IMG/VR virus record: IMGVR_UViG_2778261066_000005
Length of the DNA stretch: 12,377 nt
Source of the DNA: a virus
Taxonomy: Duplodnaviria > Heunggongvirae > Uroviricota > Caudoviricetes
Direction: 5' to 3' (one strand)
The notes beneath the pieces are model-generated. The model saw only the letters and a list, made by a program, of their open reading frames with translations, did no database searches and had not been told where the DNA came from. A program made the translations under genes and the position numbers. Within the stretch, counting starts at the first letter, position 1, and the number at the start of each line of letters is the position of its first letter. Shown one piece after another: positions 1 to 9,951 of the stretch.

Positions 1-1
1 G

Positions 2-30
2 TTGACAAAAATAGAAAAATGCGAAAATAT
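2..30 (+). promoter_or_regulatory. Candidate sigma70 promoter for the first ORF
   Basis: Perfect -35 hexamer TTGACA at 2-7; only weak -10 candidates about 17 bp downstream (AAATAT 25-30); GAAAA(T) direct repeats at 14-28. The window edge truncates upstream context. Confidence 0.3.
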
Positions 31-65
31 GTGGTTTACGAATTCTAAAAAAAGCGAAACTTGAA

Positions 66-716
66 ATGAATGAAAATCAGTTAGCTCCTTGTTGGGAATT
101 TCAACCTTATCTTGCTGAAAACTATGTTCGCCACTTGTTGGCGGAGATCGCTAACGTACTTGAGCAGCTGTACTATCATAAGCACGCATTAGACAGCAAC
201 TGGTCTGAAGGTGTAAGGGCTTATGATTGGGTCAGAAATCATCTTATTCAAAATGAAGATGCAATTCCTGGCCTTGAGATGATTTCCAAGGGGTTGGACT
301 ATGTAGTTGCTTTAAATAAAGTTCCGCTACAATTTACCAAAGATTGCATTAATAACCCCAAAAAGAAACATCGTCTGCGTCGAAATAAAGTAGAGTATGA
401 GCAGCTCTCATTGTTTGGTGATGTTGAGGCTGAGCAAGATATTACATGGCGAGTCATAGCTGAGCCTTTTTTATCCGAAGAGGGCGATGGTGAATTAGAG
501 TCCACACTGCCTCGTTGGGAGGTAGCTCTTGTTGGATTTAATACTTATGGTGCTCAGATTAGTATAGTTTCTCATCAATCTACAGCATCGATGCCGCTTA
601 TGCCTCTTGATTATAACACACTCCCTGACGAAGCGGAGATTAATAAGGTGCCTCTTCGTCGGCGTACGAAGGATAAAGATTTGGATGTGAGCAGTGATGG
701 AACATCAGGTGAATAA
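66..716 (+). CDS. Hypothetical protein, 216 aa, no family recognised; first gene of a two-gene module
   Basis: ATG-initiated 651-nt ORF; its 3' end overlaps the next gene by 20 nt (stop TAA 714-716 versus ATG 697), implying translational coupling. No strong Shine-Dalgarno and no motif recognised. Confidence 0.55.
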   Translation: MNENQLAPCWEFQPYLAENYVRHLLAEIANVLEQLYYHKHALDSNWSEGVRAYDWVRNHLIQNEDAIPGLEMISKGLDYVVALNKVPLQFTKDCINNPKKKHRLRRNKVEYEQLSLFGDVEAEQDITWRVIAEPFLSEEGDGELESTLPRWEVALVGFNTYGAQISIVSHQSTASMPLMPLDYNTLPDEAEINKVPLRRRTKDKDLDVSSDGTSGE

Positions 717-1800
717 CTTCACTGAGTATCGGGGTGATAAGCTCAAACTAGCGAGAATGGCTGTTGGGCTTTCTTGTGAAGAGTTAGCCGAAAAAATTGG
801 CAAGACAAAGCAATTCGTTAGCAAACTGGAGAAGGGGTGCAGGCCATCGGAGCAATGTCTTGAGTTAATATCTTCAGCGCTTATGATTAAGTCCAGTTTT
901 CTTTTTACTGAACGAAAATACGCTCTGGAAAGTGATGTCTGCCATTTTCGGAGTAAGAAGTCCAGGACTCAAACGCTGACTAATAGTGTATTGGCCAGGG
1001 CTGAGATTCTTAATATTATAATTTCTGCTGTTGAAGGTGAAATCGAATTTCCTGACGTTAACATACCGGAGCACCCAGGGGCTGAATTACTTACTCCGAA
1101 TGATATTGAGCGAGTGGCAGAAGATTGTCGCCGTGCCTGGAATTTAGGTCTTGGCCCTATATCATCAATGGTTAAATTGGCGGAGAGTTTAGGGGTAATC
1201 GTTGCGCATGTTACGGGAGTCGATGATCGTGTTGATGCTTTTACTGTTCACAATAACAGGCCTGTTATCATCAGGAACAATGTTAAAAAAAGCATATGTA
1301 GATTTCGCTCTGATTTAGGTCATGAATTAGGGCATTTAGTAATGCATGAGGGCATAACGACAGGTGATAAACTTACGGAATCACAAGCCGATCACTTTTC
1401 GAGCGCCTTATTAGTTCCCAGGTTATCTTTCATTAAAGAATTTCCACGAATACGAGGTAAGCAATTCGACTGGAATGCTCTGGTTGAATTTAAACTTAGA
1501 TGGAAAATCAGCCTTAAAATGTGTATTTATCGAGCCAGCGCATTAGGCTTATTGACCCAGGAACAGGCAAGAACTGGCTATATGCATCTTAATTCCAGAG
1601 GGTATACGAGAGTTGAACCTGGTGATGAACTTTTGCGCCCTGAAGAACCCGGCATGCTGGCCGAGGCGATTGAAATGCTGGATGATGCAACCTGGCTAAG
1701 AATTCTTATGAAAACTGGCTTGAGCCAAGATTTAATTCGTGAGTTGTTCTCCATCAACAGACCTATTACAAATCCAAGAAATATTTTCCAGATTGTTTGA
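697..1800 (+). CDS. Fused XRE-family HTH / ImmA-IrrE (M78, COG2856-type) zinc metallopeptidase, about 367 aa
   Basis: N-terminus (KLKLARMAVGLSCEELAEKIGKTKQFVSKLEKG) has the XRE helix-turn-helix pattern. HExxH zinc-binding motif HELGH is encoded at nt 1321-1335, in the context RSDLGHELGHLVMHEG typical of ImmA/IrrE peptidases. GTG at 694 is an alternative in-frame start. Confidence 0.85.
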   Translation: MEHQVNNFTEYRGDKLKLARMAVGLSCEELAEKIGKTKQFVSKLEKGCRPSEQCLELISSALMIKSSFLFTERKYALESDVCHFRSKKSRTQTLTNSVLARAEILNIIISAVEGEIEFPDVNIPEHPGAELLTPNDIERVAEDCRRAWNLGLGPISSMVKLAESLGVIVAHVTGVDDRVDAFTVHNNRPVIIRNNVKKSICRFRSDLGHELGHLVMHEGITTGDKLTESQADHFSSALLVPRLSFIKEFPRIRGKQFDWNALVEFKLRWKISLKMCIYRASALGLLTQEQARTGYMHLNSRGYTRVEPGDELLRPEEPGMLAEAIEMLDDATWLRILMKTGLSQDLIRELFSINRPITNPRNIFQIV

Positions 1801-1805
1801 GTATA

Positions 1806-1826
1806 CCCGCTTCGGCGGGTTTTTTG
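1806..1826 (+). terminator. Rho-independent terminator closing the two-gene module
   Basis: Stem CCCGC (1806-1810), loop TTCG, stem GCGGG (1815-1819), then TTTTTTGTTTTT, 6 nt after the stop at 1800. Confidence 0.7.
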
Positions 1827-1909
1827 TTTTTATTTTCAACGTGTTTGAAGTTTTGGACGGTGCCAGAATAGAATCAAAAATACTTAAGTAGCGCGCAGGG
1901 AGAAGAGGG

Positions 1910-2131
1910 ATGGACCCCGAACAGGGGGAGTGCTATTTATCTGGAAGGATTCTGTTGATGAAAATCGAAGAATTACGTGAAATTTTTAGTGAAGATGGCC
2001 TCTATGCTGTGCGCGTTGAGAATGGGGGTATTACCTACACAGCGTTAATTCCTGATGATCATGTAGTGTTATCTGTTGAGGCATTCATTGAATACTTGGA
2101 AAGACTCGGTTTCAAGGTAGTTCGGGAATAA
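1910..2131 (+). CDS. Small hypothetical protein, 73 aa (alternative start ATG 1958 gives 57 aa)
   Basis: ORF preceded by AGGGAG 7 nt upstream of ATG 1910; internal ATG 1958 has GGAAGGA upstream. No family recognised. Confidence 0.45.
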   Translation: MDPEQGECYLSGRILLMKIEELREIFSEDGLYAVRVENGGITYTALIPDDHVVLSVEAFIEYLERLGFKVVRE

Positions 2132-2190
2132 GTTATAATACGTGAGCCAGCCTGAACAACTGGCAACCTGCAGCGCCATTGGAGATGACA

Positions 2191-2463
2191 ATGGCGCATA
2201 ATTTCAAATTTCGCAATTCTGATTCTGCCTTTGCCAGCAGGCACGGGTGGCGTTCTCACGCATTCAAATATGACTGGTATCAGCACGATCCCTGTACTGA
2301 AGAACAGGCCGAATGGCTGATTCATAACTACCGCAGACGTGGATATGAGTTTAGGAAAGCCCTCACCCTCGATTATCGTCACTGGATAATCTACGTCAGA
2401 CTCCCTTATTCCGAACGCCCACCGCGTCCGTCCCGCACATTCCAGCAACGCATCTGGAGGTAA
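2191..2463 (+). CDS. Small hypothetical protein, about 90 aa
   Basis: ATG 2191 lies 6 nt after GGAG (2181-2184); the ORF track's longer version begins at TTG 2179. The stop TAA 2461-2463 abuts the GTG 2465 start of the next gene. Confidence 0.5.
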   Translation: MAHNFKFRNSDSAFASRHGWRSHAFKYDWYQHDPCTEEQAEWLIHNYRRRGYEFRKALTLDYRHWIIYVRLPYSERPPRPSRTFQQRIWR

Positions 2464-2464
2464 C

Positions 2465-3511
2465 GTGCGGGTATTACTTCGACCTGTTCTGGTACCGGAA
2501 CTCGGGCTGGTGATCGTTAAGCCGGGCCGTGAATCCATGCCGGTATTCCACAATACCCGGGTACTGGTGGAGCCGGAACCGAAAAGCATGCGTAATCTGC
2601 CGTCCGGGGTCGTTCCTGCCGTTCGCCAGCCGCTGGCGGAGGATAAATCATTACTGCCATTTTTCAGCGACGAACGAGTGATTCGTGCTGCTGGTGGCGC
2701 TGGCGCATTGTCTGATTGGTTACTGCGCCATGTTAAATCCTGCCAGTGGCCACACGGCGATTATCACCACAGTGAAACCGTCATTCACCGTTATGGTACC
2801 GGCGCAATGGTGTTGTGCTGGCACTGCGACAACCAGCTGCGCGACCAGACCTCCGAATCACTCGGGCAACTTGCTCACCAAAACCTGTCTGCATGGATGA
2901 TTGACGTCATACGCCATGCAATGAATGGCTCGCAGGAACGGGAATTATCGCTGGCTGAATTATCCTGGTGGGCGGTCCGCAATCAGGTGGCGGACGCGCT
3001 ACCGGAAGCGGTATTACGTCGTTCGCTGGGGTTGCGTGCGGAAAAAATCCGCTCAATGTACCGTGAAAGCGACATCGTACCGGGAGAGCAGACCGCCACC
3101 AGCATACTGAAGCAGCGCACAAAAAATCTTGCGCCGCTGCCTCACGTCCACCAGCAAAACCCGCCACAGGAAGAGACGGTGGTCAGCATTGCCGTTGATC
3201 CTGAGTCTCCGGAATCTTTCATGAAACGACCTAAACGTCGCCGCTGGGTTAACGAGAAATACACACGCTGGGTGAAGACACAGCCGTGTGCGTGTTGTGG
3301 TAAGCCAGCCGACGATCCCCATCACCTGATTGGTCATGGTCAGGGCGGAATGGGGACAAAATCTCACGATATTTTCACGCTACCGCTGTGTCGGGAGCAT
3401 CACAACGAGCTTCATGCGGATCCTCTGGCGTTCGAAGAAAAGCATGGTTCTCAGGTTGATTTAATTTTTCGTTTTCTTGATCACGCCTTTGCAACTGGCG
3501 TGCTTGGGTAA
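2465..3511 (+). CDS. YdfU-like DUF968 protein with C-terminal HNH-like Cys/His motif, 348 aa
   Basis: GTG-initiated 348-aa ORF; the size and the position upstream of rusA and Q match the ydfU slot of Qin-type lambdoid prophages (recalled from memory). C-terminus CACCGKPADDPHHLIGHGQGG...CREHHNELH resembles an HNH zinc-finger nuclease motif. Confidence 0.65.
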   Translation: MRVLLRPVLVPELGLVIVKPGRESMPVFHNTRVLVEPEPKSMRNLPSGVVPAVRQPLAEDKSLLPFFSDERVIRAAGGAGALSDWLLRHVKSCQWPHGDYHHSETVIHRYGTGAMVLCWHCDNQLRDQTSESLGQLAHQNLSAWMIDVIRHAMNGSQERELSLAELSWWAVRNQVADALPEAVLRRSLGLRAEKIRSMYRESDIVPGEQTATSILKQRTKNLAPLPHVHQQNPPQEETVVSIAVDPESPESFMKRPKRRRWVNEKYTRWVKTQPCACCGKPADDPHHLIGHGQGGMGTKSHDIFTLPLCREHHNELHADPLAFEEKHGSQVDLIFRFLDHAFATGVLG

Positions 3512-3523
3512 AAGAGGTGACTG

Positions 3524-3898
3524 ATGCTCATAGATTTGGTTTTACCTTACCCGCCGACGGTGAACACTTACTGGCGTCGTCGTGGCAGCACATATTTTGT
3601 ATCAAAAGCCGGGGAGCGTTATCGCCGGGCAGTGGCGCTTATTGTTCGCCAGCAGCGGCTGAAATTAAGCCTGTCCGGAAGGTTGGCAATAAAAATTATT
3701 GCAGAACCACCGGATAAGCGCCGCCGTGACCTGGACAATATTCTGAAAGCGCCGCTGGATGCGCTGACGCATGTGGGGTTGCTAATGGACGATGAGCAGT
3801 TTGATGAAATCAATATCGTTCGTGCTCAGCCAGTATCTGGTGGACGTCTGGGGGTGAAGATTTACCCCATAATGCTTGAAGGGCAGGTCAAAAAATGA
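3524..3898 (+). CDS. rusA: Holliday-junction resolvase RusA (crossover junction endodeoxyribonuclease)
   Basis: 124-aa protein with the RusA signature ...TYWRRRG...PDKRRRDLDNILKAPLDAL...; Shine-Dalgarno AAGAGGTGA at 3512-3520; its stop overlaps the next start as ATGA at 3895-3898. Confidence 0.9.
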   Translation: MLIDLVLPYPPTVNTYWRRRGSTYFVSKAGERYRRAVALIVRQQRLKLSLSGRLAIKIIAEPPDKRRRDLDNILKAPLDALTHVGLLMDDEQFDEINIVRAQPVSGGRLGVKIYPIMLEGQVKK

Positions 3899-4716
3899 AA
3901 CTGGAAGATTTACCGAAATACCACTCCCCAAAATCCCCCGGCCTGACTGATGCATCGGCCTCAACGTCGAAAGATGCGCTGAGTATCACTGATGTGATGG
4001 CCGCGCAGGGCATGACACAGAATCGGGCTGAGATGGGGTTTTCTGCGTTCCTTGGGAAAATGGGCATTAGTATGAATGACAGAGAGCGGGCAACAGAATT
4101 GCTGACAGAATATGCACTCAGTCGGTGTGATCGCGTGGCGGCGTTAAGAAAACTCCCGGCAGAAATAAAACCGGCAGTGATGCGTATTATGGCTTCGTAT
4201 GCGTTTGAAGATTATGCCCGCAGCGCGGCGAGCAAAAAACAGTGCTCCTGCTGTCACGGAAAAAAATTTATTGAAAGCGAGGTTTTTACAAACAAGATCC
4301 AGTATCCGGATGGTAAGCCGCCGGTATGGGCAAAGTGTACGAAAGGTGTGTATCCGTCTTACTGGGAAGAATGGAAAAAAGTCAGGGAGGTGGTAAAAGT
4401 TGCCTGTCCGGAGTGTGGCGGAAAGGGTGAGGTTTCCACCGCCTGTAAGGATTGCCGTGGGCGTGGTGTCGCCATTCATCGTGAAGAGTCGGTAAAACGT
4501 GGTATGCCTGTTATCAGAGACTGCCAGCGTTGTGGTGGTCGTGGCTGTGAAAGACTACCATCAACGGAGGCATTTAATGCCATATGCAAAGTGACGAGTG
4601 CTATCACGCTTGATACGTGGAAAAAATCAGTGAAACGCTTTTACGATACGTTGGTGGTTCGGTTTGACATTGAAGAGGCATGGGCGGAGCGGCAGTTAAA
4701 GAGGGTAACGCGATAG
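3895..4716 (+). CDS. Q-like late-gene antiterminator (QuuQ-type), 273 aa, with four CxxC motifs
   Basis: Sits immediately after rusA and immediately before a pR'-like promoter and tR'-like terminator, which is the canonical place for Q. Four CxxC pairs (CSCCHG, CPECGG, CKDCRG, CQRCGG) indicate zinc-ribbon repeats. The family call rests on context and recalled similarity. Confidence 0.65.
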   Translation: MKLEDLPKYHSPKSPGLTDASASTSKDALSITDVMAAQGMTQNRAEMGFSAFLGKMGISMNDRERATELLTEYALSRCDRVAALRKLPAEIKPAVMRIMASYAFEDYARSAASKKQCSCCHGKKFIESEVFTNKIQYPDGKPPVWAKCTKGVYPSYWEEWKKVREVVKVACPECGGKGEVSTACKDCRGRGVAIHREESVKRGMPVIRDCQRCGGRGCERLPSTEAFNAICKVTSAITLDTWKKSVKRFYDTLVVRFDIEEAWAERQLKRVTR

Positions 4717-4721
4717 TGTTG

Positions 4722-4749
4722 TTGATTTTTCCCGAATCTGTGGTAAATT
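4722..4749 (+). promoter_or_regulatory. Late promoter pR'-like (sigma70)
   Basis: -35 TTGATT (4722-4727), 16-nt spacer, TG at 4741-4742 and -10 TAAATT (4744-4749); TAAATT is the same -10 hexamer as lambda pR'. It starts 6 nt after the Q stop. Confidence 0.6.
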
Positions 4750-4795
4750 TGCTCTAACGATGGGCGTTTTATGCCTGACGTTAGAAGATTTTTTA

Positions 4796-4821
4796 CACCC
4801 CGCCGCCTGGCGGGTTTTTTA
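4796..4821 (+). terminator. tR'-like intrinsic terminator
   Basis: Stem CCCGCC (4799-4804), loop GCCT, stem GGCGGG (4809-4814), then TTTTTT (4815-4820), about 65 nt downstream of the candidate promoter. Confidence 0.7.
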
Positions 4822-4942
4822 TGACTGAAATCGCGTCAGTATAGTAAACGCGCTGGTGGCGGTGAATACCTGTCTTTCAGCTTGCTGGCTTTTTCGACAA
4901 GAGTTATTGGTGTGTCACGTTAACCGGAAAAGGGAAAAAGAC

Positions 4943-5140
4943 ATGCTAAAACAGCAGGATATGACAGAAACCGCCAGAGTGGTGTTTAATGAATTAAGCG
5001 TTACCGAACCGGCGACAGTCGGGGAGATAGCGCAGAATACTTACCTTTCACGCGAACGCTGCCAGTTAATACTGACCCAGCTGGTTATGGCGGATCTGGC
5101 AGACTATCAGTTCGGTTGTTACAGACGCCTTCCGCAGTGA
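4943..5140 (+). CDS. Small putative HTH / winged-helix DNA-binding protein, 65 aa
   Basis: ATG 4943 (the ORF track's longer version starts at GTG 4856). The segment VGEIAQNTYLSRERCQLILTQL looks like a helix-turn-helix. The stop is embedded in a terminator hairpin. Confidence 0.45.
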   Translation: MLKQQDMTETARVVFNELSVTEPATVGEIAQNTYLSRERCQLILTQLVMADLADYQFGCYRRLPQ

Positions 5141-5150
5141 AGGCTTTTTT
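5127..5150 (+). terminator. Intrinsic terminator overlapping the stop of the small HTH ORF
   Basis: Stem GCCTTC (5127-5132), loop CGCAGT, stem GAAGGC (5139-5144), then TTTTTT (5145-5150). Confidence 0.6.
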
Positions 5151-5167
5151 ATTTGTGGTAAATGGGC

Positions 5168-5198
5168 GGCTGGTGGGTGTTAGGGGCACCCACCAGCC
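5168..5198 (+). other. 12-bp perfect inverted repeat carrying a Chi octamer on each arm
   Basis: GGCTGGTGGGTG (5168-5179), 7-nt loop, CACCCACCAGCC (5187-5198). GCTGGTGG is at 5169-5176 and its complement at 5190-5197. No U-tract follows. Confidence 0.6.
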
Positions 5199-5290
5199 AT
5201 CTGCTCATGCGTTGGGTTCACAAGCAAACCTCAGGCCCACTGCTTTGCGCAAAAGCAGAATGAGCCTATCAGAGACAGGCTTAATGATCC

Positions 5291-6340
5291 ATGCTTAATA
5301 CTGTAAAAATATCCAGTTGTGAGTTAATCAACGCCGACTGCCTGGAATTTATCCGGTCGTTACCCGAAAATTCTGTTGACCTGATAGTCACGGACCCGCC
5401 GTACTTTAAAGTGAAGCCTGAGGGCTGGGATAACCAGTGGAAGGGCGACGATGATTACCTGAAGTGGCTGGACCAGTGTCTGGCGCAGTTCTGGCGGGTG
5501 CTGAAACCTGCCGGAAGTCTTTACCTGTTCTGTGGTCATCGCCTGGCATCTGATATCGAAATCATGATGCGTGAACGCTTCAGTGTGCTGAACCATATTA
5601 TCTGGGCGAAGCCGTCCGGACGCTGGAACGGATGCAACAAGGAAAGCCTGCGGGCGTATTTCCCCGCCACAGAGCGCATTCTGTTCGCGGAACATTATCA
5701 GGGGCCGTATCGTCCGAAAGATGCCGGGTATGCGGCGAAGGGCAGTGCACTGAAACAGCATGTGATGGCCCCGCTGATTTCTTACTTTCGTGATGCGCGC
5801 GCGGCCCTGGGGATAACGGCAAAACAGATTGCAGATGCCACAGGAAAGAAAAACATGGTGTCGCACTGGTTCAGTGCCAGTCAGTGGCAGCTACCGAACG
5901 AAAGCGATTATCTGAAATTACAGTCGCTGTTTGCCCGGGTGGCAGAAGAGAAACATCAGCGCGGTGAACTGGAAAAGCCCCACCACCAGCTGGTGGATAC
6001 GTATACGTCACTGAACCGGCAGTATGTGGAGCTGCAGAGTGAATATAAGCATCTGCGGCGGTATTTTGGTGTGACGGCGCAGGTGCCGTACACGGATGTG
6101 TGGACACATAAACCGGTGCAGTTCTATCCCGGGAAACATCCGTGCGAAAAACCGGCAGAAATGCTGCAGCAGATAATCAGCGCAAGCAGTCGTCCGGGTG
6201 ACCTGGTTGCAGATTTTTTTATGGGCTCAGGTTCAACGGTAAAAGCGGCACTGGCGCTCGGGCGTCGTGCGATTGGCGTTGAGCTGGAGACCGGACGTTT
6301 TGAGCAGACAGTCAGGGAAGTTCAGGATTTAATCGTTTGA
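5291..6340 (+). CDS. Orphan beta-class amino-DNA methyltransferase (N6-adenine or N4-cytosine), 349 aa
   Basis: Motif IV DPPY at nt 5393-5404 (SVDLIVTDPPYF) near the N-terminus and motif I FxGxG (DLVADFFMGSGST) near the C-terminus, the beta-class order. No adjacent restriction endonuclease gene. Confidence 0.85.
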   Translation: MLNTVKISSCELINADCLEFIRSLPENSVDLIVTDPPYFKVKPEGWDNQWKGDDDYLKWLDQCLAQFWRVLKPAGSLYLFCGHRLASDIEIMMRERFSVLNHIIWAKPSGRWNGCNKESLRAYFPATERILFAEHYQGPYRPKDAGYAAKGSALKQHVMAPLISYFRDARAALGITAKQIADATGKKNMVSHWFSASQWQLPNESDYLKLQSLFARVAEEKHQRGELEKPHHQLVDTYTSLNRQYVELQSEYKHLRRYFGVTAQVPYTDVWTHKPVQFYPGKHPCEKPAEMLQQIISASSRPGDLVADFFMGSGSTVKAALALGRRAIGVELETGRFEQTVREVQDLIV

Positions 6341-6389
6341 AACGGATGAGATTGCAGAATTAATTACGCACCATTATTATTCTGCTCCC

Positions 6390-6465
6390 GGCCCTTTAGC
6401 TCAGTGGTGAGAGCGAGCGACTCATAATCGCCAGGTCGCTGGTTCAAATCCAGCAAGGGCCACCA
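6390..6465 (+). tRNA. ileZ: tRNA-Ile2 (anticodon CAU; ileX/ileZ-like), 76 nt with encoded CCA
   Basis: Hand-folded cloverleaf: acceptor GGCCCTT/AAGGGCC, D-arm GCTC-AGTGGTGA-GAGC, anticodon CAT at 6423-6425, T-loop TTCAAAT, discriminator A plus CCA. Closely resembles E. coli tRNA-Ile2 from memory; an elongator tRNA-Met cannot be excluded by eye. Confidence 0.8.
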
Positions 6466-6474
6466 TATCACATA

Positions 6475-6551
6475 CCACCATTAGCTCATCGGGATAGAGC
6501 GCCAGCCTTCGAAGCTGGTTGCGCGGGGTTCGAGTTCTCGATGGCGGTCCA
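6475..6551 (+). tRNA. tRNA-Arg (anticodon UCG), 77 nt, with non-canonical pairs
   Basis: Acceptor CCACCAT/ATGGCGG (one A-C mismatch), D-arm GCTC...GAGC, anticodon loop CTTCGAA (TCG at 6509-6511), T-loop TTCGAGT, CCA at 6549-6551. The T-stem contains two G-U pairs, so it may be partly degenerate. Confidence 0.6.
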
Positions 6552-6565
6552 TTTATCGGTATTCT

Positions 6566-6609
6566 GCGTTGTTAGCTCAGCCGGACAGAGCAATTGCCTT
6601 CTAAGCAGC
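6566..6609 (+). pseudogene. Truncated tRNA-Arg (UCU): 5' half only
   Basis: GCGTTGT-TA-GCTC-AGCCGGACA-GAGC-A-ATTGC-CTTCTAA-GCAGC gives acceptor 5' strand, D-arm and anticodon arm (TCT at 6600-6602). No T-arm and no ACAACGC acceptor 3' strand follow; a GT-rich tract follows instead. Confidence 0.5.
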
Positions 6610-6807
6610 TGTGGTTGCACTCCTGTTGTTTCTGGTGGTGATGGTGGACTTCAGCAGCCGGATAATGTCGGTGCTGTCTGATGGTGTTTTGGTGGCGGGT
6701 GTGTGGTTGTTGCTTTCCCGTTGCTGAAAAAGAAAGCATCAGGCGATTAGCAGGGTATCAGTTACACGTTGAAATTTTTAAATACCTCACAATTCCACAG
6801 CTTGATG

Positions 6808-7005
6808 ATTGTCTGGCTGCCGGAGAATTTGTTAAAAATTACATCGCATGGTGAATCCCCCTCAGCGGCGGGGCATCTGGCAAAGTGTATGATCCAGAGA
6901 ACATGCAAATTCAGTAGACAGGCTGAATTTACCGGGAGGCCCCTGGCACCATGCGACAGACAGAAATTAGGCTATACTTCAGCCCCTCTCCGGAGGGGCT
7001 TTTCT
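6808..7005 (+). repeat. Structured non-coding element, copy 1 (about 198 bp), terminator-capped
   Basis: Paralogous to 7277-7470. Shared blocks: ATTGTCTGGC, TTTGTTAAAAA, TCGCATGGTGAATCCCCCT, GAATT(T/C)ACCGGGAGGC(C/A)CC(T/C)GGCACCATGC, and terminal palindrome AGCCCCTC-TCCG-GAGGGGCT plus T-run. Confidence 0.7.
6981..7005 (+). terminator. Intrinsic terminator ending element copy 1
   Basis: 8-bp GC-rich stem AGCCCCTC/GAGGGGCT with TCCG loop, followed by TTTTCT. Confidence 0.65.
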
Positions 7006-7194
7006 GTGCAGGATGTGTCACAGTTTCCTGAATTCTGAGTACTGTCCTGTTACTCAGGGTGCTATATTTTCTGACGTGATGAAAGTCTGCCGGAAGGCGG
7101 AACGTATCGGAAATGACCCAGTAGAGAAAACGTTGACTCAGATACCGATGCTGAGTTACCGGGAAACCGGCATCACATGACCGCTATCCTTCCA

Positions 7195-7217
7195 GGCTCG
7201 CTCCGGCGGGCCTTTTT
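7195..7217 (+). terminator. Intrinsic terminator of the unit between the two copies
   Basis: Stem GGCTCGC / GCGGGCC (one G-U pair), loop TCCG (the same loop as the flanking terminators), then TTTTT (7213-7217). Confidence 0.55.
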
Positions 7218-7276
7218 ACTGCAGAAAACAGTTTTCCCGTAAAATGCCACGTTGCTCATAATTCAGGCTGGCGATT

Positions 7277-7470
7277 ATTGTCTGGCCGGCGGGAAGTTTG
7301 TTAAAAAATTTCGCATGGTGAATCCCCCTGTGCGGAGGGGTAATCAGCGAGTAGGTATATGGGATAATCGCGGATTCAGGTGCTGGTACTGAATTCACCG
7401 GGAGGCACCCGGCACCATGCAATGGCACATAGCGCCACTCTCCAGCCCCTCTCCGGAGGGGCTGTTTATA
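7277..7470 (+). repeat. Structured non-coding element, copy 2 (about 194 bp), terminator-capped
   Basis: Paralogous to 6808-7005; the 19-nt block TCGCATGGTGAATCCCCCT is identical (7311-7329 versus 6844-6862); the same terminal palindrome sits at 7444-7463. Confidence 0.7.
7444..7470 (+). terminator. Intrinsic terminator ending element copy 2 (weak U-tract)
   Basis: AGCCCCTC-TCCG-GAGGGGCT followed by GTTTATATTG. Confidence 0.5.
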
Positions 7471-7498
7471 TTGATTTTGTCAGATGTGAGTAAACTCC

Positions 7499-7834
7499 TT
7501 ATGGACTTTGTTGTTTTAGCCCATAAGGACATATTTGCAGAGTGCAACGGTTATTAAAGCATTCATTCAATACGTTATCTGTATTTGTAGGGCATTCCTG
7601 GCTGTTTTTGATTAAATTCCAGAATGTTTTATTGAATGGTACTACGTTGTAAATGGTTACAGGTAGCACTTTGTTATTGAGCATGATGCCTGTGTGAGTC
7701 AGTGTAAATATACTTTCAGGAGGTAAGAAAGCATCCGATTGATACCAGATTATTAATTTTATTTTACTCCATATGACTGAAAAAGATATTCCGCATGATG
7801 GCTGGATAACTGTATCAATCACAATCCACTTCAT
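7499..7834 (-). CDS. Hypothetical protein, 111 aa, in an AT-rich island; the only candidate gene on the minus strand
   Basis: ORF with AAGGAAA about 6 nt upstream of its ATG on the minus strand. Base composition is much more AT-rich than the flanking phage genes. No motif recognised; it could be spurious. Confidence 0.3.
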
Positions 7835-8079: not shown

Positions 8080-9951
8080 ATGGTGGAAAGAACCATGGCA
8101 TTTAAACACTATGATGTTGTCAGGGCGGCGTCGCCGTCAGATCTTGCGGAAAAGCTGACACATAAACTGAAAGAGGGCTGGCAGCCGTTTGGTAGTCCGG
8201 TGGCCATAACCCCTTATACCCTGATGCAGGCGATTGCAGCAGAAGGTGATGTGGTCGTCAGTGGTGCAACTGAGCCGGAGTGGTACTACGTCATCGTACT
8301 GGCCGGGCAATCCAATGCCATGGCTTACGGTGAAGGGCTTCCGCTTCCGGATTCATACGATGCGCCCCATCCGCGCATTAAGCAACTGGCCCGGCGTAAC
8401 ACAGTGACTCCCGGTGGTGAAGTATGCGTATTTAACGACATCATTCCTGCTGACCATTGTCTGCATGATGTTCAGGATATGAGTACGATTAATCATCCCC
8501 GGGCTGACCTGAGCAAAGGGCAGTACGGCTGTGTCGGACAGGGCTTACATATTGCCAAAAAACTGCTTCCGTATATCCCTAATAACGCGGGGATCCTGCT
8601 GGTACCATGCTGTCGTGGTGGTTCGGCATTCACCCAGGGCACGGAGGGGACATTCAGCGAGTCCACGGGGGCCAGTCAGGATTCGGCTCGCTGGGGAGTG
8701 GGTAAGCCGTTATATCAGGATCTGCTTTTCCGCACGAAGGCAGCATTGCAGAAAAATCCGAAAAACGTTTTGCTGGCGATATGCTGGATGCAGGGGGAAT
8801 TCGATATGACGAATGCCAGTTACGCCCAGCAGCCAGCAGCATTTCTTGCAATGGTACAGCAGTTCCGTGCTGACCTTGCCGGGCTGGCGGCGCAGTGTCA
8901 CGGTGGAAGTCCGGCATCAGTCCCCTGGATTTGTGGCGACACGACATACGCGTGGAAACAAGAACACGGTACGCAATATGAAGTGGTATATGGTGCATAT
9001 AAAGGTAAAGAATCCCAGCAGATTTATTTTGTTCCCTTTATGACCGATGGTAGCGGAGTTAATACACCGACAAACAACCCGTCAGAAGATCCTGATATTG
9101 CCGGGTCTGGTTATTACGGTTCGGCATCCCGAACGAACAAAAACTGGGTATCATCAAATCGCCCGACGCATTTCAGCTCATGGGCGCGTCGTGGCATTAT
9201 TCCCGATCGTATGGCAACTGCTATTCTGAACGTAGCCGGTCGCACCTTAGCCTTCATTAGTGGTAAGGCACCGGAAATCAAACCCTCGCCCGGCGGCGAC
9301 ACTCCATCGGGGCCGTCTGATGGTGACACATCCGTTCGTACAGTCTCCCTGCTGCCGACAGCCGGAGAGGCTGCTGCGCAGGGCTGGACCATCACCGGCG
9401 GCAGTGTTGCGCTGGAAGATGGTGTGTTTAAGGTTACCAAGCAGAGCAATAAAACTTGGTCCCTGATGCATCCGGTGGATGACGCAGTCTCCCTGCTGAC
9501 ACGGGGTGGCAGACTGAGCTGTAAGTTTCGACTGTCAGGCGCACTGACCAACAACCAGTTCGGTCTGGGAATTTATCTGTATACCGATGTAGCGTTACCT
9601 GACGTCGTGGCGATGACCGGGACTGGTAACCCGTTCCTGATGTCGTTCTTCACCCAGACCACAGACGGCAAACTGAATCTGATGCATCACAGGAAAGCAG
9701 GAAACACAAAGTTGGGCGAGTTCGGGAATTACAGTAACGACTGGCAGACGCTGGAGCTGGTGTTCACCGCCGGCAGTGCCACGGTTACTCCGAAACTGAA
9801 TGGAGTGGCTGGCCCGGCATTCCAGGTCATAAAAGACAGTCTGACACTGGGGCTGAATGCGCTGACGCTGACGGATATTACCAAAAATGCAGCGTATGGC
9901 GTTGAGATAGAAAGTCTGGTGCTGGAGATAAATGCACCAGCATCATCATAA
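8080..9951 (+). CDS. nanS-p: NanS-p-like prophage sialate O-acetylesterase (DUF1737 N-terminus plus SASA/SGNH esterase domain), 623 aa
   Basis: VIVLAGQSNAMAYGEG carries the GQSN motif of the sialate O-acetylesterase family. The size and the position between the tRNA cluster and the lysis cassette match the nanS-p genes of Stx phages (recalled). Alternative start ATG 8095 has a better-spaced GGTGGAAAG upstream. Confidence 0.8.
   Translation: MVERTMAFKHYDVVRAASPSDLAEKLTHKLKEGWQPFGSPVAITPYTLMQAIAAEGDVVVSGATEPEWYYVIVLAGQSNAMAYGEGLPLPDSYDAPHPRIKQLARRNTVTPGGEVCVFNDIIPADHCLHDVQDMSTINHPRADLSKGQYGCVGQGLHIAKKLLPYIPNNAGILLVPCCRGGSAFTQGTEGTFSESTGASQDSARWGVGKPLYQDLLFRTKAALQKNPKNVLLAICWMQGEFDMTNASYAQQPAAFLAMVQQFRADLAGLAAQCHGGSPASVPWICGDTTYAWKQEHGTQYEVVYGAYKGKESQQIYFVPFMTDGSGVNTPTNNPSEDPDIAGSGYYGSASRTNKNWVSSNRPTHFSSWARRGIIPDRMATAILNVAGRTLAFISGKAPEIKPSPGGDTPSGPSDGDTSVRTVSLLPTAGEAAAQGWTITGGSVALEDGVFKVTKQSNKTWSLMHPVDDAVSLLTRGGRLSCKFRLSGALTNNQFGLGIYLYTDVALPDVVAMTGTGNPFLMSFFTQTTDGKLNLMHHRKAGNTKLGEFGNYSNDWQTLELVFTAGSATVTPKLNGVAGPAFQVIKDSLTLGLNALTLTDITKNAAYGVEIESLVLEINAPASS

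Follow-up and report, generated by a model that had tools for sequence, protein, structure and literature searches.

The third gene of a tRNA cluster in an Escherichia coli lambdoid prophage stops partway through its sequence, which raises the question of whether the fragment is an unusual tRNA, the trace of an integration event, the boundary of a swapped module, a sequence with a new role, or a dead remnant. The stretch of DNA analyzed (12,377 nucleotides, called the window here) is the late-regulatory and accessory region of the prophage, between the late antiterminator Q and the lysis genes. The fragment, a piece of argO, is very probably the dead remnant of one illegitimate deletion of about 654 bp, with no function of its own.

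The argO fragment and its setting

It is textbook knowledge that lambdoid phages, Stx-converting ones among them, carry an ileZ-argN-argO cluster between Q and either the stx or the lysis genes, and database annotation agrees with this position. The cluster in the window resembles those of 933W, Sp5, Stx2a_F765, PA2, and mEp460 in its genes, their order, and their place between Q and the lysis cassette, and positions 6300 to 6607, which include ileZ, argN, and nucleotides 1 to 42 of argO, are 92.5% identical to Stx2a_F765. The slot downstream of argO is occupied by stx2AB in Stx phages and by tciAB in the lineage of the window. Unlike the clusters of Stx and other lambdoid phages, that of the window ends in a 42-nucleotide stump of its third gene, has two extra weakening substitutions in argN, and is not accompanied by toxin genes. 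Positions 6300 to 7100 are 100% identical to several finished chromosomes (e.g., NZ_CP147059). The features of the window are given in Table 1.

Table 1. Coordinates of the annotated features and of the lesions in the window
Feature	Position	Strand	Basis or remark
HTH-ImmA/IrrE fusion protein	694-1800	+	
DUF968 protein	2465-3511	+	
RusA	3524-3898	+	
Q-type antiterminator	3895-4716	+	
N6/N4 DNA methyltransferase	5291-6340	+	
ileZ, tRNA with anticodon CAU, intact, first gene of the cluster	6390-6465	+	ARAGORN; Rfam, 72.5 bits
argN, tRNA-Arg(UCG)	6475-6551	+	ARAGORN; PGAP; Rfam, 44.9 bits
argO remnant, nucleotides 1-42 of the 77-nucleotide tRNA-Arg(UCU) gene	6566-6607	+	Alignment to intact argO
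Deletion/recombination junction	6607..6608		BLAST end points and three-way anchored alignment
tciB (DUF3927) remnant, homologous to codons 8-54	6608-6750	+	Original stop codon at 6748-6750
1-base deletion in the tciB remnant	6703/6704	+	Alignment; one G lost, GGTGTGGTGG to GGTGTGTGG
STnc100, copy 1	6816-7009	+	RF02076, 138 bits
STnc100, copy 2	7285-7473	+	RF02076, 132.5 bits
iraM homologue	7499-7834	-	
SASA-family esterase	8080-9951	+	Followed by holin, DUF1327 protein, lysozyme, and Rz

The gene at 694 to 1800 encodes a 368-amino-acid fusion of HTH_3 and Peptidase_M78 (ImmA/IrrE) domains, the start of which is overlapped by a 216-amino-acid open reading frame (66 to 716) with no Pfam match. 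Both lie between hokD/sok and the DUF968 gene. In prophage L001, which is otherwise near-identical, this slot holds a different cassette in which the HTH and ImmA/IrrE genes are separate, so the slot looks like a variable accessory one. On the other side of the tRNA cluster, the prophage carries its homologue of the anti-adaptor gene iraM, encoded on the minus strand and flanked by the STnc100 copies and the esterase gene.

The sequence beginning at 6566, GCGTTGTTAGCTCAGCCGGACAGAGCAATTGCCTTCTAAGCA, matches argO at 42 of 42 positions in phage mEp460 and in the prophage of strain UPEC-774U (L007), where the gene is intact, and at 41 of 42 in Stx2a_F765. It retains the acceptor 5' strand (6566 to 6572), the D-arm, the 5' strand of the anticodon stem, and the anticodon loop with the anticodon TCT (6599 to 6601), plus three bases on the 3' side of that stem; up to nucleotide 42, the D-arm and anticodon loop do not differ from those of intact argO. 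What has been lost is the remainder of the anticodon stem together with the variable loop, T-arm, acceptor 3' strand, and CCA. The initial annotation had described a tRNA-Arg(UCU) that was intact up to 6609 and cut after the anticodon stem. Alignment to intact argO bears out the truncation and places the breakpoint somewhat earlier, after nucleotide 42 (6607), inside the 3' strand of the anticodon stem. Of the five bases of that strand three are native, that at 6608 forms a G-U pair by chance, and that at 6609 is mismatched.

The possibility that the remainder of the molecule is present in an unusual form, with odd arms folding a complete tRNA across 6566 to 6650, was considered and ruled out by tRNA calling, covariance models, and folding. 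ARAGORN called only ileZ and argN in the window and nothing from 6566 onward, and Rfam returned the same two tRNAs at the gathering score (29 bits for RF00005). In permissive mode, Rfam gave a partial match at 6575 to 6609 to positions 10 to 42 of the 71-position model (14.2 bits, E = 5), spanning the D-arm and anticodon arm only. The predicted fold of 6566 to 6650 contains no cloverleaf and is less stable than that of shuffled sequence (z = +1.5), with 191 of 200 shuffles folding at least as well. As the initial annotation had noted, neither a T-arm nor a complementary acceptor strand follows the stump: no partner for 6566 to 6572 was found within the window, and where a T-arm with a GTTCGAATC-type loop would be expected, the sequence after 6607 is tciB coding sequence. 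No copy of the 35-nucleotide argO 3' half, with up to 5 mismatches allowed, was found in the window or in the identical 14.8-kb locus L001, a result that also disposes of an insertion into argO with its 3' half displaced downstream. PGAP gives the stump no annotation. Because the tests that define a tRNA fail at this site, the stump is classed, on the strength of its sequence, as a pseudogene of argO.

The junction with tciB and the undeleted relative

The initial annotation had described the sequence to the right of the stump as a GT-rich tract, and the motif TGGTGGTGATGGTGG is indeed present at 6633 to 6647; however, the tract is coding sequence rather than filler, and its G+T richness results from the GTG, GTT, CTG, TTG, and GGT codons of a membrane segment rich in Val, Leu, and Gly. 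PGAP and RefSeq annotate within it a 38-amino-acid "DUF3927 family protein" with a GTG start (6611 to 6727; WP_000226111.1), which matches Pfam DUF3927 (PF13064) with 42.6 bits at profile positions 11 to 39 of 53, above the cutoff of 25 bits. The full-length, 54-amino-acid TciB of L007 matches the same profile with 71.7 bits at positions 4 to 50. Positions 6608 to 6954 are 83.9% identical to phage JLK-2012, starting exactly at tciB codon 8. A minus-strand open reading frame (6572 to 6739; 55 amino acids) that runs antisense to tciB and is rich in His, Gln, and Arg was treated as spurious.

The tciB sequence is damaged at both ends. It lacks codons 1 to 7 and with them the GTG start, which overlaps the stop codon of tciA, and the frame upstream of it is closed by a TAA (6602 to 6604) that is part of the argO anticodon loop. 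Near the 3' end, the single-base deletion shifts the frame by -1 and converts the TciB C terminus from ...VVVVAFPLLKKKASGD to ...VWLLLSRC. The remnant thus resembles the tciA/tciB operons of JLK-2012 and UPEC-774U in its tciB homology and DUF3927 match, and differs from them in the absence of tciA, the missing first seven codons, and the frameshift. Since the DUF3927 match is retained and a full-length protein of about 54 amino acids with native start and C terminus is not, the open reading frame is classed, from these lesions, as a predicted pseudogene of tciB, and WP_000226111.1 as doubly damaged. The tciB alleles are very diverse, with 28 distinct sequences among the loci collected (junction-bearing remnants included). 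In another lineage, comprising L146, L148, L111, L157, and others with an mEp460-like tciB, the N-terminal 21 codons have been replaced by unrelated sequence so that homology begins at nucleotide 66; these genes are still annotated as encoding a DUF3927 protein.

The L007 prophage shows what an undeleted arrangement looks like. Its gene order is DNA methyltransferase, ileZ, argN, intact argO, a terminator-like hairpin, tciA (TerB family, 143 amino acids), and tciB (54 amino acids). Positions 1 to 6607 of the window align without gaps to L007 620 to 7226 at 97.85% identity, and the alignment resumes at window position 6608 with L007 7881, so that 654 bp (L007 7227 to 7880) are absent from the window. 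The missing interval holds the argO 3' half, the terminator-like hairpin after argO (7276 to 7293), tciA, and tciB codons 1 to 7. BLAST end points agree, with argO homology stopping at 6607 and homology to the tciB of JLK-2012 and L007 beginning at 6608. At the join, argO reads AAGCA|ATCGG, tciB reads GTCTG|GCTGTGG, and the window reads AAGCA|GCTGTGG; the junction is blunt, without microhomology. The absence of any base common to both ends points to illegitimate, homology-independent recombination. The earlier proposal that the tRNA had been cut by a recombination or deletion event is thereby borne out, with the undeleted relative in hand.

That proposal had also taken the cut as the boundary of a swapped module, which fits the data in one respect and not in another. 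The gene to the right is the usual collinear neighbor of argO, found about 650 bp downstream of it, and a deletion accounts for the join; on the other hand, the block from 6608 to about 7834 does travel between prophage backbones (see below). A true module swap would have been an illegitimate crossover between two co-resident lambdoid genomes, with one donor contributing sequence up to argO nucleotide 42 and a second contributing a diverged tciB-STnc100-iraM block from tciB codon 8. This origin is possible but distinctly less likely than a deletion within one genome. It is suggested by the change in identity to L007 across the junction: the 200 bp immediately to the left are 98 to 99% identical, the tciB remnant about 94%, and the sequence beyond it 70 to 85%. 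The tciB allele itself also fits a separate, once-functional allele: it differs from that of L007 by six synonymous changes and one replacement, and several of its synonymous states recur in other intact tciB alleles, which together suggest an unsampled, once-functional parent. In every collection searched, the allele was seen only in junction form; no undeleted copy was found in complete E. coli genomes (searched with a chimeric megablast query), IMG/VR, GTDB representative genomes, or JGI metagenomes. However, two partners sharing the same gene order would give the same product as a simple deletion, and homologous recombination after a deletion accounts equally well for the mosaic flanks, of which at least eight haplotypes exist on the left. 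A dip in identity to L007 also occurs away from the junction, at 6208 to 6407 (83 to 85%, versus 94 to 99% around it). This stretch takes in the methyltransferase gene at its 3' end and the spacer that precedes ileZ, and a small mosaic patch directly upstream of the tRNA cluster is a possible explanation.

Integrases classically target tRNA genes in the anticodon loop or stem, and the break in argO falls in the anticodon stem. The stump might on that ground be read as half of an att site left by a tyrosine-integrase element that had entered the anticodon arm, an origin that is improbable in the extreme. Integration restores the tRNA gene and leaves a displaced 3' fragment, but the fragment here is the 5' part. 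The window and the identical 14.8-kb locus contain neither the argO 3' half nor a repeat of the junction sequence, no integrase gene occurs in the window or L001, and the stump is not accompanied by the duplicated tRNA 3' segment flanking an integrase-bearing element that marks att-site fragments. The right-hand side is the ordinary neighbor tciB, cut at codon 8, and the spacer at 7005 to 7266 is the normal STnc100 inter-copy spacer rather than displaced argO flank. The stump does resemble other tRNA fragments at mosaic joints of prophages in being a partial gene at a breakpoint that is missed by tRNA callers and unannotated by PGAP. Most described prophage-adjacent tRNA fragments are displaced 3' segments produced by integrase action at att sites, in contrast to the argO stump, a 5' segment from a homology-free deletion inside the phage genome.

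A terminator-like motif at 7190 to 7217, similar to the terminator after argO, was also considered as a displaced terminator of argO and rejected because it is a recurrent motif in the normal STnc100 spacer, which L007 has as well, at 85% identity. The motif is about 26 nucleotides long (CAGGCTCGC-loop-GCGGGCC-TTTTT); besides its place between the STnc100 copies of the window, it is found after the tRNA clusters of three different phages (L007 7271 to 7298, L002 3353 to 3378, and L003 2394 to 2418). STnc100 has been described as a prophage small RNA related to PasD (bioRxiv 10.64898/2026.05.13.724894). The tandem copies of the window are about 73% identical to each other, and the spacer between them is also found in L007. 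Four junction carriers (L012, L016, L033, and L037) have a single copy, apparently through recombination between the two.

In the deletion model, the ancestor would have carried an ileZ-argN-argO cluster followed by a terminator hairpin and a small accessory operon of tciA (TerB-like) and tciB (DUF3927). A single homology-independent deletion of about 654 bp would then have fused argO nucleotide 42 to tciB codon 8, with loss of the 3' half of argO, the terminator, tciA, and the beginning of tciB. The junction would have arisen once, and homologous recombination in the flanks would have spread the block among prophage backbones. Decay would have continued afterward, with a 1-base deletion shifting the frame of the tciB remnant and, in the haplotype of the window, argN gaining G3A on top of C61U.

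Distribution and descent of the junction

The junction is present in 325 of 5,426 complete E. coli genomes, counted where a 100-nucleotide query across the junction was covered to at least 80%; the count is probably inflated by oversampled clinical clones. The exact 23-mer spanning the junction, GCCTTCTAAGCAGCTGTGGTTGC, occurs in 30 IMG/VR contigs, and the junction is also found in records deposited as phages (vB_EcoS-640R1 and relatives). The junction pattern had no match in GTDB species-representative genomes. An identical junction in 325 independently finished genomes, 30 viral contigs, and deposited phage records leaves no room for a false join made by assembly or sequencing error. Literature searches on ileZ, argN, argO, and tciA/tciB found no published description of the argO/tciB junction.

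A 32-mer from the 5' part of argO occurs 145 times in the loci collected, continuing into the full-length 3' half in 117 (2 of which end early at a contig end) and into exactly this junction in the other 28. A recurrent break hot spot in argO was rejected because these occurrences hold a single type of truncation; the only other argO lesion found was a 17-nucleotide deletion at the 5' end in L157. The same breakpoint in all backbones suggests that the junction probably arose once. The block from 6608 to 7834, through iraM, is 98.3 to 100% identical in all carriers, and the iraM homologue moves with it at 98.5 to 100% identity. The surroundings vary: the Q gene is 91 to 100% identical, the methyltransferase gene is found in some carriers only, argN is either intact or carries non-tRNA sequence in place of its middle, and the esterase gene is 85 to 100% identical or truncated. 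There are at least eight haplotypes of the left flank, with G3A in argN confined to one of them. A near-identical block in differing flanks indicates movement of the scar into various backbones by homologous recombination. Four viral contigs (L030, L031, L035, and L039) carry the junction without the tciB frameshift, which indicates that the junction came first and the frameshift second.

A junction that is common, in a block that is nearly invariant, with an open reading frame annotated by PGAP and the terminator after argO lost, might be thought to have gained a function, either as a stable small RNA or processing signal, as a 38-amino-acid peptide from the GTG at 6611, or by coupling the tRNA promoter to STnc100. 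Such a gain is very unlikely. Invariance spans the whole block of about 1.2 kb, which points to recent common descent and not to selection on the fragment. The open reading frame has no coupled start, its only Shine-Dalgarno-like sequence is AAGCAG at 2 nucleotides from the GTG, it was subsequently frameshifted, and in one genome it is interrupted by an IS21-family element. RNA structure is not above background.

Decay of the cluster and its meaning for the prophage

The reading of the stump as a dead remnant draws on structure and on continued decay, which together make the scar a putatively nonfunctional one. RNase P, CCA handling, and aminoacyl-tRNA synthetase all need the acceptor 3' strand and the T-arm; without an acceptor stem and T-arm, the stump would be neither processed nor charged as a tRNA. 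Genes in the window use AGA, AGG, and ATA at 8.3, 6.3, and 13.9 per 1,000 codons, respectively, several times the E. coli average, and the prophage would depend on host tRNA-Arg(UCU) for its AGA codons. TciA would likewise have been lost and TciB crippled.

The other tRNA genes of the cluster differ in condition. PGAP names ileZ a tRNA-Ile of the lysidine type, and tRNA-Ile is annotated in the identical record NZ_CP147059. For argN, the initial annotation had reported an A-C mismatch in the acceptor stem and two G-U pairs in the T-stem, all of which are present: A3 (6477) faces C70 (6545), and the pairs are G51 (6526)-U63 (6538) and G53 (6528)-U61 (6536). Two of the three weakened pairs are derived. 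G3-C70 is found in all relatives aligned, and A3 occurs only in the haplotype of the window (10 of 35 junction-bearing sequences). Residue 61 is C in L007, L002, and L009 and U in the window and the L030/L039 group, where G.U replaces the almost universal G53-C61 pair. L007 and L002 share the G51.U63 pair, which is older. Rfam scores for argN are 58.4 bits in L009, 56.1 in L007, 54.8 in the Stx2a phage L002, 50.3 in L031 and L039 (which have C61U only), and 44.9 in the window. The suggestion that argN may be decaying is plausible in view of these derived changes and the fall in score from 56.1 through 50.3 to 44.9 bits, although the gene still passes ARAGORN, PGAP, and the 29-bit Rfam threshold.

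Other members of the family have been damaged in other ways. Among mEp460-like prophages (L004 2616 to 2715, L005, L008 7094 to 7175, L010, L014, and L037), unrelated sequence replaces the middle of argN, leaving both ends of the acceptor stem (CCGCCAT...ATGGCGG) in a gene that tRNA callers do not recognize; this is a second, independent route of cluster decay. The deletion in L157 (NZ_CP151161, 2490 to 2576) removes the first two bases of argO and fuses an argN-like remnant to argO nucleotide 3; tRNA-Arg(UCU) is still called there by ARAGORN and Rfam (59.1 bits) and lacks a PGAP annotation. In L158 (NZ_CP194957, from 2590), the IS21-family element ISEc12 (istA/istB) lies within the tciB remnant, 39 nucleotides past the junction. 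These independent lesions fit relaxed selection on this region in resident prophages.

Loss of the terminator after argO has one potential consequence for transcription. No terminator-like site was found on the + strand of the window between argN and 6981, and the terminator of the first STnc100 copy lies at 6981 to 7000; transcripts of the tRNA cluster would then be able to run on to that terminator. There is a slight chance that the promoter of the cluster drives a chimeric RNA (tRNA 5' half, tciB remnant, and first STnc100 copy) and that this explains the spread of the block. If so, STnc100 expression would be altered in lysogens, giving a possible reason for the presence of the junction in about 6% of finished E. 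coli genomes.

Within the well-known ileZ-argN-argO cluster, the scar is an ordinary, dead remnant rather than a new kind of element, and it has little significance beyond annotation and phage population genetics. For annotation, WP_000226111.1 should be treated as a pseudogene, and an argO pseudogene is unannotated in several hundred finished genomes. For population genetics, the 23-mer provides a precise, single-origin marker of the mosaic block (argO stump, tciB stump, two STnc100 copies, and iraM) with which that block may be followed between lambdoid prophage backbones. More generally, the locus illustrates the stepwise decay that phage-borne tRNA genes undergo in resident prophages.
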